From Escherichia phage Turkey3: DNA of 64,000 nt. A program made the translations under genes and the position numbers. Of this stretch, positions 31,090 to 32,144 are shown in pieces; the stretch's first letter is position 1; every line of letters begins with the position of its first letter. The notes below the pieces were generated by a model. The model ran no database searches and was not told where the DNA came from. It was given only the letters and a program-made list of their open reading frames with translations. The DNA lies in the sequence record PQ471515.1. One strand, written 5' to 3'.

Positions 31090-31614
31090 ATGTCGAAGAA
31101 GGATGCTTCGAAGAAAAAACAATCAGTACATTTCAGTACTGGAAAAGATAACTGGACTACTCCAAAGGATTTCTTTGAAGATTTGGATGAACTCTGGGAA
31201 TTTACACTAGATGCAGCATGTGTTAAAGAAACAGCATTGTGTGATAATTTCTTTACACCAGAAGATAATTCACTTGAACAGGACTGGGGAAACAATATCG
31301 TGTGGCTCAACCCACCGTACAGTGATTTGAAAACGTGGTTATCTAAGGCAGTTGATGCATATAACAAAGGTGCTACAGTACTGATTCTCGTACCATCAAG
31401 AACTGATACTATTGCGTTCCAGGACTATGCGTCTAAGTTATGCGACTGTATTTGTTTTATAAAAGGTCGCTTAAAGTTCGGTATCCCTGAAGAACCAGAT
31501 AAAAAGACGGATAGTGCTCCATTCCCTAGTTGTTTAATAGTACTGGATAAGTATTTGACTCCAGCTAAAATCAACTATCTTAAATCTATTGGTCAGGTGA
31601 TGAAGAACATATGA
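31090..31614 (+). CDS. dam: DNA N6-adenine methyltransferase (phage Dam-type)
   Basis: DNWTTPKDFF...LDAAC...WLNPPYSD (NPPY catalytic motif). Confidence 0.75.
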   Translation: MSKKDASKKKQSVHFSTGKDNWTTPKDFFEDLDELWEFTLDAACVKETALCDNFFTPEDNSLEQDWGNNIVWLNPPYSDLKTWLSKAVDAYNKGATVLILVPSRTDTIAFQDYASKLCDCICFIKGRLKFGIPEEPDKKTDSAPFPSCLIVLDKYLTPAKINYLKSIGQVMKNI

Positions 31615-32144
31615 AAGAAACATGCGTAGTGACATTCGGAAGAATTAACCCAGTACATCGTGGTCATGGTTTAGTATTTGAAAAAGCTCAAGCACTACAA
31701 GAACAGTACAATGCGGATTTGAAAATATTCCTTAGCACCAGTACTGATGCCGTCAAAAACCCATTACCTCCTGAACTGAAAATGTACTATACAGAAGGAT
31801 TTTACCCATCTGTACAAGAAAATATCTATACAGAAGATAATCTGTTTGATATAATGAGAGAACTGGATGGAAAGTACTTAGATGTTCTTTTCATATGTGG
31901 TTCAGACAGACTTGAACCATTCCAAAAAACGCTTGACACGTACAATGGGAAGTTATATAATTTTTGTTCAATCAAGGCAGTTCAAGCTGGAATTGATCGA
32001 AATGTAAGTCGCTACAGTTCCACACAGATGCGTGAGTTTGCCAAGAATGAAGATTTTAATAGCTTCAGTACTTTTCTACCTGGTAATGATGATGCACTGA
32101 AAATTAAACTATTTGAAGATGTAATAAAATACATGAGGAAATAA
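31611..32144 (+). CDS. nucleotidyltransferase, NMN adenylyltransferase-like
   Basis: FGRINPVHRGH (HxGH motif) and C-terminal RYSSTQMR (ISSTxxR-like); ATGA overlap with dam. Confidence 0.55.
   Translation: MKETCVVTFGRINPVHRGHGLVFEKAQALQEQYNADLKIFLSTSTDAVKNPLPPELKMYYTEGFYPSVQENIYTEDNLFDIMRELDGKYLDVLFICGSDRLEPFQKTLDTYNGKLYNFCSIKAVQAGIDRNVSRYSSTQMREFAKNEDFNSFSTFLPGNDDALKIKLFEDVIKYMRK

Follow-up and report, generated by a model that had tools for sequence, protein, structure and literature searches.

Escherichia phage Turkey3 carries two adjacent genes, open reading frame (ORF) 1 and ORF2, in the 64,000-nucleotide stretch of record PQ471515.1 analysed here and called the window throughout. By homology, ORF1 is an orphan Dam-family N6-adenine DNA methyltransferase, and ORF2 is a HIGH-motif superfamily nucleotidyltransferase (NTase) with its catalytic motifs intact. 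Within that superfamily, ORF2 is predicted to add a further member to a branch that is very large, confined to phages and not yet characterised by experiment. It is similar to nicotinamide mononucleotide (NMN) adenylyltransferase (NMNAT) in fold and is not a demonstrable NMNAT; the NAD+ salvage role given to it in an initial annotation is unsupported. Overall, the two genes probably encode independent enzymes, an orphan Dam and an uncharacterised HIGH-branch NTase, with NMN as only one option for the acceptor.

Both motifs that the initial annotation had noticed in ORF2 are present, GRINPVHRGH at residues 10-19 and the ISSTxxR-like YSSTQMR at residues 135-141, and the invariant catalytic residues of the family, R11, H19, S136 and R141, lie within them. 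The annotation had treated the two motifs as typical of NMNATs. They are found across the superfamily, and position 16 is threonine in 22, histidine in 12 and another residue in 2 of 36 family members, so that most relatives have TxGH, as does phosphopantetheine adenylyltransferase (PPAT). The YSSTQMR motif matches in profile the GISGTKIR segment of the Protein Data Bank (PDB) entry 3gmi (MJ0951/TmcAL-like). Between the two motifs, the centre of ORF2 holds conserved residues that are specific to the family, including K57, G97-S-D99-R100, Y111-N112-G, Y116 and G127. In the signature GSDR...YNGxxYNF, G97, D99 and N112 are invariant among the 36 members and R100, Y111 and Y116 nearly so.

ORF2 has the Rossmann-like alpha/beta fold of the superfamily. 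Its structure model, built from the 36-sequence alignment, reaches a predicted local distance difference test score (pLDDT) of 96.2 and replaced an earlier AlphaFold2 model from 12 close sequences (pLDDT 84.6), whose Foldseek matches had low template-modelling (TM) scores, with PPAT first. Single-sequence Pfam scores stay below threshold, at 16.9 bits for CTP_transf_like (PF01467; gathering score 21) and 18.4 bits for FAD_syn (cut-off 27). PF01467 is matched at E<=1e-3 by 47 of 66 long relatives, with a best E of 3.6e-8.

The match to PHROG 3041 (E 4.2e-54) indicates that ORF2 is part of a genuine gene family and that its motifs did not arise by chance; PHROG 395 matches at E 7.5e-24, and both groups, named 'cytidyltransferase', cover residues 2-176. 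A word-indexed protein search reaches only close Asteriusvirus relatives, whereas an exhaustive search with a hidden Markov model built from aligned close relatives retrieves 3,440 cluster representatives at E<=1e-3, of which 2,261 remain at E<=1e-10. With ORF2 as the tblastn query, homologues appear in 564 phage records, 460 of them from cyanophages, annotated as 'cytitidyltransferase' (T4-GC190). Carriers outside the cyanophages are jumbo phages of Escherichia, Salmonella, Klebsiella, Erwinia, Pseudomonas and Xanthomonas. The complete genome of vB_Ec-M-J, 98% identical, served as a stand-in for the whole Turkey3 genome, and tblastn over the window plus vB_Ec-M-J (359 kb) found a single family copy in this type of genome. 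In a structure search of BFVD, family members reach a TM score of ~0.9 to ORF2, and a canonical phage NMNAT (S-CBWM1) ranks 43rd at 0.64.

The cyanomyovirus members (PHROG 3041/395, T4-GC190; S-PM2, S-SSM7, P-HM2) are 30-37% identical to ORF2 by tblastn and share its invariant residues. They differ in architecture: ORF2 is a bare 177-aa domain, whereas many of these relatives are extended. Of the 150 highest-ranking representatives, 37 resemble ORF2 in standing alone, at below 230 aa, and 102 have a C-terminal extension of more than 100 aa, with total lengths up to ~1,200 aa. The extensions have in common one module that adjoins the NTase domain and another, helical and very basic, at the C-terminus; their Pfam matches are limited to DUF5824 (14 of 66), Zeta-toxin/AAA_33 P-loop kinases (5 of 66) and a few others. 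Most relatives are multidomain proteins of 400-1,200 aa with acidic and very basic helical regions; some also carry an intein fragment, DUF5824, or a P-loop domain of Zeta-toxin-like or polynucleotide-kinase-like type. The small ORFs beside ORF2 were considered as split-off pieces of the long-form C-terminal modules and ruled out, as they show no similarity to them.

Database names for the family are inconsistent and include 'NaMN adenylyltransferase', 'NrdB/ribonucleotide reductase A' and 'LysM domain protein'. Labels such as cytidyltransferase, glycerol-3-phosphate cytidylyltransferase (GCT), nicotinic acid mononucleotide (NaMN) adenylyltransferase and 'ribonucleotide reductase A' are unreliable. 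Published accounts of the cyanophage gene describe its function as unclear and themselves adopt the GCT label (PMC9146016, PMC6918029). A protein annotated as cytidylyltransferase was detected in two independent cyanophage virion proteomes (PMC9146016, PMC10665884). These virion proteins presumably belong to the ORF2 family, which suggests that long forms can be packaged in virions; nothing of the kind is indicated for the short form. Literature searches found no papers on 'cytitidyltransferase' and nothing specific on anti-defence roles of cytidylyltransferase-like proteins.

Three independent measures place the NMN/NaMN adenylyltransferases nearest to ORF2, with NadM/archaeal NMNAT first in two of them. 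By structure, the nearest neighbours are NMNATs. In hhalign comparisons of the family profile, MJ0541 archaeal NMNAT aligns at 85% over 54 columns (residues 7-64, the ATP-binding part only), and two archaeal NMNATs reach 85-89% over the N-terminal ~55 residues, with the alignment ending by residue 69. TagD gives 78% over 27 columns confined to the HIGH motif, PPAT 34% over 141 columns as the sole full-length alignment, and NadD 14%. Of these references, the MJ0541 sequence was checked against the PDB. Weak NCBIfam matches among the 36 members fall on the generic domain cyt_tran_rel (29), NadD TIGR00482 (29), PRK01153 archaeal NMNAT (14), NadR (12), RibF (7) and PPAT (5), and ORF2 alone matches fragments of the NadD and RibF models at E ~1e-3.

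The margins by which NMNAT comes nearest are small, and the likeness does not extend beyond the nucleotide-binding part. The term NMNAT-like in the initial annotation holds as far as the best hhalign partner and the NadD, NMNAT and NadR votes are concerned. It goes no further, since ORF2 falls far below the curated NMNAT cut-offs (TIGR00482, 18.6 versus 112.45 bits; NF000840, 18.3 versus 150), leaves its acceptor region unaligned and sits in a separate family. TIGR01527 and TIGR01526 do not match it. A single-sequence search of the PDB with ORF2 gave no match, and in the profile search all NMNAT and PPAT matches have E values of ~0.02. One marginal match (E 0.02) is 9x6f, a 357-aa protein deposited as 'Nicotinamide-nucleotide adenylyltransferase', which is presumably Bas30_86.

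NadM/archaeal NMNATs (MJ0541, PDB 1f9a; Francisella NadM-Nudix, 2qjt), the type present in the phage NatV and NARP2 enzymes, are about the same size as ORF2. They share with it GRxxPxHxGH with an arginine after the glycine, S...NP(F/L), and YS(G/S)TxxR followed by an aromatic residue and LP, at an overall identity of 13-15%. The acceptor side appears to differ. In NadM, the D-I-x-x-N-x-x-W segment after strand 3 binds nicotinamide, according to residue roles from the Mth NMNAT literature. Manual alignment places a shorter segment there in ORF2, which also has the family-specific GSDR...YNGxxYNF, and finds no conserved Trp or Asn at that position in the family; hhalign ends before this segment. 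The alignments of the central signature to NMNAT, NadD and TagD all stop earlier, and it is aligned only to PPAT, at the low-confidence 34%. ORF2 has neither a Nudix fusion nor a Nampt partner.

By homology, ORF2 would bind a nucleoside triphosphate, most likely ATP, through GRxNPx(H/T)xGH and SxTxxR, and would move the nucleoside monophosphate onto the phosphate of a small acceptor with release of pyrophosphate. Since its nearest characterised relatives are the NadM/archaeal NMNATs, NMN or NaMN is tentatively the single most likely acceptor, in which case ORF2 would work alone on a host-derived mononucleotide. Because the acceptor pocket is specific to the family and no NAD-salvage partner accompanies the gene, a different small phosphorylated acceptor is at least as likely when all candidates are taken together, with a probability approaching one half. 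Some other reaction takes the remainder.

The initial annotation went further and suggested an NAD+ programme with Sir2 and Nudix enzymes, possibly against NAD+-depleting defences; such a reading, with ORF2 as a bona fide NMNAT that restores NAD+, we consider unlikely. The nearest solved folds and the weak model votes described above speak for it, as does the size of ORF2, which mirrors archaeal NMNAT. So do R11, H16, H19 and R141, which mirror archaeal NMNAT positions under the Mth NMNAT numbering that we assume (the sequences themselves were verified). The Sir2 and Nudix genes that the annotation placed ~24 kb downstream are indeed there (PF02146, E 1.3e-19; Nudt16-like Nudix), forming a phage-encoded pair that consumes NAD+ and hydrolyses ADP-ribose or caps. 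They lie past at least one terminator in a different transcription unit, and apart from this co-residence nothing supports manipulation of host NAD+ pools against NAD+-depleting defence. NADase defences yield ADP-ribose and nicotinamide. From these two products NAD+ cannot be rebuilt by an NMNAT acting alone, which at best could recycle host NMN/NaMN. Partner genes were sought with a human NAMPT query, which retrieves annotated phage nicotinamide phosphoribosyltransferases in 2,017 records, and with NadV from phage RsoM2USA and E. coli Prs. The absence of NadV/Nampt from the window, stated in the initial annotation, is borne out: a Pfam scan of its 56 ORFs of at least 150 aa found no NAPRTase/Nampt, Prs or NAD-synthase family, and tblastn with the three queries against the window and vB_Ec-M-J gave only noise (E>2). 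The annotation had also proposed a search of the rest of the genome for NAD partners, and on the 98%-identical genome this returned no Nampt/NadV or Prs/Adps. No gene of vB_Ec-M-J is annotated as Nampt, Prs/Adps, PnuC or NadR-like, PnuC having been judged by annotation only and not searched by sequence. None of 80 family loci from IMG/VR has a Nampt/NadV gene within 8 kb. Moreover, the family is concentrated in cyanophages, and no cyanophage name (Synechococcus, Cyanophage, Prochlorococcus) is among the ten commonest in the NAMPT-query records, the tenth having 55 records. Phage NAD+ reconstitution is itself well established, which favours the proposal: NARP1 combines Adps with Namat and NARP2 combines Nampt with NMNAT-Nudix (10.1101/2024.02.11.579819), and NARP3 pairs PnuC with the NadR-like Bas30_86 (PMC13464706). 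NARP2 and NARP3 resemble ORF2 in that each holds a HIGH-superfamily NMNAT domain. All three pathways differ from the situation here, where no partner gene was found, and ORF2 lacks a Nudix or kinase fusion and belongs to a family separate from the NARP NMNATs. In a published survey, every NadM-bearing phage also has NadV (PMC9503650).

Other substrates can be weighed against the same data. If ORF2 were a cytidylyltransferase for which a polyol- or sugar-phosphate is the substrate (TagD/GCT-, CCT- or HldE-like), it would provide an NDP-activated donor for cell-surface or DNA glycosylation. GCT is the common database label for the family, and many records are annotated in this way; the proposal would agree with the view of phage HIGH NTases as NDP-sugar makers taken by Iyer et al. 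(PMC7824862), and the HIGH motif does align with TagD. We nonetheless regard it as a little more doubtful than the NAD+ programme, because the C-terminal motif is YSSTxMR and not RTxGISTT, and the ORF1/ORF2 unit contains no glycosyltransferase or sugar-pathway gene. GCT is also missing from the 25 NCBIfam families most often matched by the 36 members (37 were matched in all), and ORF2 shows neither the RTxGISTT and RYVDEV motifs nor a family-level profile similarity to GCT. Since the NCBIfam votes among those 25 families never fall on GCT, placement of ORF2 in a GCT-type subfamily, the outcome named in the initial annotation as counting against NMNAT, did not occur. It is improbable that ORF2 adenylylates 4'-phosphopantetheine to dephospho-CoA, as PPAT (CoaD) does, or FMN to FAD, as FMN adenylyltransferase (FMNAT) does. 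The TxGH of most relatives, a KK-P-(L/M) segment (KKNPL, by our own comparison similar to SKKPMF of PPAT), the similar size, the leading Foldseek matches of the first model and the full-length hhalign alignment point to PPAT; weak FAD_syn and RibF matches point to FMNAT, and a related genome encodes an acyl carrier protein. Against these stand scores far below the PPAT and RibF cut-offs, an hhalign probability of only 34% and weak matches in just 5 (PPAT) and 7 (RibF) of the 36 members. TIGR01510 (CoaD) does not match ORF2 and reaches at best E 2.8e-4 among the five matching relatives, and no riboflavin kinase or CoA-pathway partner is present. A bolder proposal, which we also consider unlikely, treats the family as a distinct enzyme class whose own acceptor pocket (GSDR...YNGxxYNF) would make NAD+ without a partner from host NMN/NaMN, or a new ADP-linked metabolite, with virion-delivered long forms acting at the start of infection.

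ORF1 agrees with its earlier description as a Dam-type methyltransferase with an NPPY motif. It matches PF05869 Dam, the phage T1-type family, at E 5.4e-32 (111.2 bits, gathering score 28.1; profile positions 7-153 of 169) and PHROG 111 'DNA methyltransferase' at E 3.9e-56, with NPPY at residues 74-77. It is a full-length member of PF05869 that differs in narrowly missing the NCBIfam equivalog TIGR01712 (91 bits against a cut-off of 97). Going by its family, ORF1 would presumably methylate phage DNA, with the anti-restriction or self-marking function usual for such enzymes. Characterised PF05869 Dam members target GATC for m6A methylation. GATC is depleted in the window (90 observed versus 231 expected under a maximal-order Markov model, ratio 0.39), and this depletion is uninformative about the ORF1 target. 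Under the same model GCGC is absent where 22 sites are expected and CCGG is depleted (ratio 0.58); GTAC is enriched, with 563 observed versus 366 expected (ratio 1.54). Taken together, the tetranucleotide biases suggest strong restriction-site avoidance despite a phage-encoded Dam-family methylase. A published description of a related phage mentions further methyltransferases.

The two genes overlap by ATGA, and AGGTGA ~10 nt upstream of the ORF2 start is a possible Shine-Dalgarno sequence. The overlap reported in the initial annotation is real; its interpretation as translational coupling is less secure, as overlaps of 4 nt occur at 23 of the 127 same-strand junctions of the window (18%), and overlaps of any length at 51%. 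The gene directly before the NTase is Dam in 5/5 short-form IMG/VR loci (contigs ~360 kb) and also in Salmonella phage Munch, whose NTase is 52% identical, and Erwinia phage Kaldavass, at 40%. This tight adjacency across the jumbo-phage lineage, together with the strong GATC depletion, could favour a two-enzyme DNA-modification module in which, for example, a nucleotide-activated group is provided or added by the NTase at the methylated adenine or close to it. Such a module is very improbable. The whole six-gene block is collinear in the jumbo phages that share the pair, so the pairing is not independent evidence of a module, and Dam is a neighbour in none of 75 longer-form IMG/VR loci and not beside the S-SSM7 or Ettore homologues. 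It is this collinearity and the lack of pairing outside the jumbo-phage lineage that place the module low; the generic nature of 4-nt overlaps in the window also counts against it. We know of no HIGH NTase that acts on DNA. The adjacency and the ATGA overlap are accordingly read as inherited synteny and compact gene packing, with no functional module indicated.

The preferred reading is therefore that of two independent enzymes encoded side by side in an early or middle unit at ~29.9-33.3 kb. Some points weigh against it. The best PDB sequence-profile match of ORF2 is not an NMNAT but the TmcAL-like 3gmi (E 1e-5), and we infer both the nucleotide and the acceptor from homology for every family member. 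As the pair persists even where NTase identity falls to 35-40%, Dam and NTase may be functionally linked, which would be compatible with the synteny.

Two hairpins probably delimit the transcription unit of ORF1 and ORF2, as predicted from sequence (Table 1). The first closes the upstream unit and would therefore mark the 5' boundary; in Munch, a terminator is annotated at the corresponding position. The second would mark the 3' boundary. Between them lie six genes, encoding a 198-aa ORF, Dam, the NTase, and ORFs of 97, 102 and 218 aa; the four neighbours of Dam and the NTase belong to lineage-specific PHROGs without assigned function. A gap of ~570 nt without a long ORF (29905-30476) separates the upstream terminator from the first gene of the unit and is also found in vB_Ec-M-J and Munch. 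Within the NTase coding sequence, positions 31933-31961 match the sigma-70 consensus perfectly (TTGACA, 17 nt, TATAAT; 12/12), ~185 nt upstream of the next gene at 32147. This site may be a real internal promoter; promoter-like sites in the window as a whole are not more numerous than in shuffled sequences.

Table 1. Features of the ORF1/ORF2 locus and of the NAD+-related genes in the window
Feature	Position	Strand	Remarks
Intrinsic-terminator-like hairpin, 12-bp stem and T run	29876-29904	+	Ends the upstream unit
Co-oriented upstream gene, 198 aa, PHROG 16210	30477-31073	+	Syntenic with Dam and NTase in related jumbo phages
ORF1, Dam-family (PF05869, T1-type) N6-adenine DNA methyltransferase, 174 aa	31090-31614	+	Predicted from Pfam and PHROG
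NPPY catalytic motif of ORF1, residues 74-77	31309-31320	+	From translation
ATGA, ORF1 stop overlapping ORF2 start ATG	31611-31614	+	Sequence
ORF2, HIGH-superfamily nucleotidyltransferase, phage 'cytidyltransferase-like' family (PHROG 3041/395), 177 aa	31611-32144	+	
GRINPVHRGH, (H/T)xGH nucleotide-binding motif, residues 10-19	31638-31667	+	R11 and H19 invariant in family
KNPL (K49, N50, P51, L52), conserved in family	31755-31766	+	Opposite (E)NPF(T) of archaeal NMNAT in hhalign
Central family-specific signature, GSDR (97-100) then YNGxxYNF (111-118)	31899-31964	+	Presumed acceptor-binding region
YSSTQMR, C-terminal ISxTxxR-type motif, residues 135-141	32013-32033	+	S136 and R141 invariant
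Co-oriented downstream gene, 97 aa, PHROG 14956	32147-32440	+	Found after the NTase in every related jumbo phage
Terminator-like hairpin after the 218-aa gene	33318-33342	+	Predicted
Sir2 (PF02146, E 1.3e-19; PHROG 2162)	55987-56739		~24 kb downstream of ORF2
Nudt16-like Nudix hydrolase (PF22327, PHROG 9999)	56736-57287		Overlaps Sir2 by 4 nt
PIN-PhoH protein	57978-59417		After Sir2/Nudix

The window shares 98.7% DNA identity over 3 kb with Escherichia phage EC.P1 and ~83% with PBECO4 and 121Q, which by sequence identifies it as an Asteriusvirus-type jumbo coliphage. An identity as a nucleus-forming chimallivirus was dropped, chmA not being reported in the paper on the Asteriusvirus Sharanji (PMC11895373). 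Directly past the terminator that closes the Dam/NTase unit, at least five short ORFs (86-103 aa) that are paralogues of one another stand in tandem at 33359-34762, with similar N-termini, '...(I/V)QFTYK..(L/I)Y...'. Further downstream is an RNA-repair pair, a T4 Rnl1-type RNA ligase at 38326-39468 (RNA_lig_T4_1 and T4_Rnl1_C) and a polynucleotide kinase-phosphatase at 40291-41223 (AAA_33 and HAD_PNKP), a classic counter to tRNA-cleaving host defences. The window also encodes two calcineurin-like phosphoesterases (44604-45362 and 48933-49724), a ClpP-like protease (50572-51267) and a DNA ligase (47495-48913), which is ATP-dependent and not NAD-dependent, so that ligation by the phage yields no NMN. 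In vB_Ec-M-J, direct terminal repeats of 21.5 kb (1-21,525) are dense in ORFs of ~70 aa, and the minus strand at 333-351 kb carries a run of ~15 paralogues named 'regulator of chromosome condensation' (RCC1-like).

Collectively, these findings describe the gene pair as a routine orphan Dam beside a member of a widespread phage family, and they do not back a counter-defence role through NAD+ salvage. Among enzymes that are 'annotated but unknown', the ORF2 family is one of the most frequent in marine cyanomyoviruses and in several lineages of jumbo phages. At 177 aa, ORF2 is a compact and well-folding representative. Its activity would bear on thousands of phage genes, and its substrate may reveal either an NMNAT route that needs no partner or a nucleotide-linked metabolite new to phage infection.

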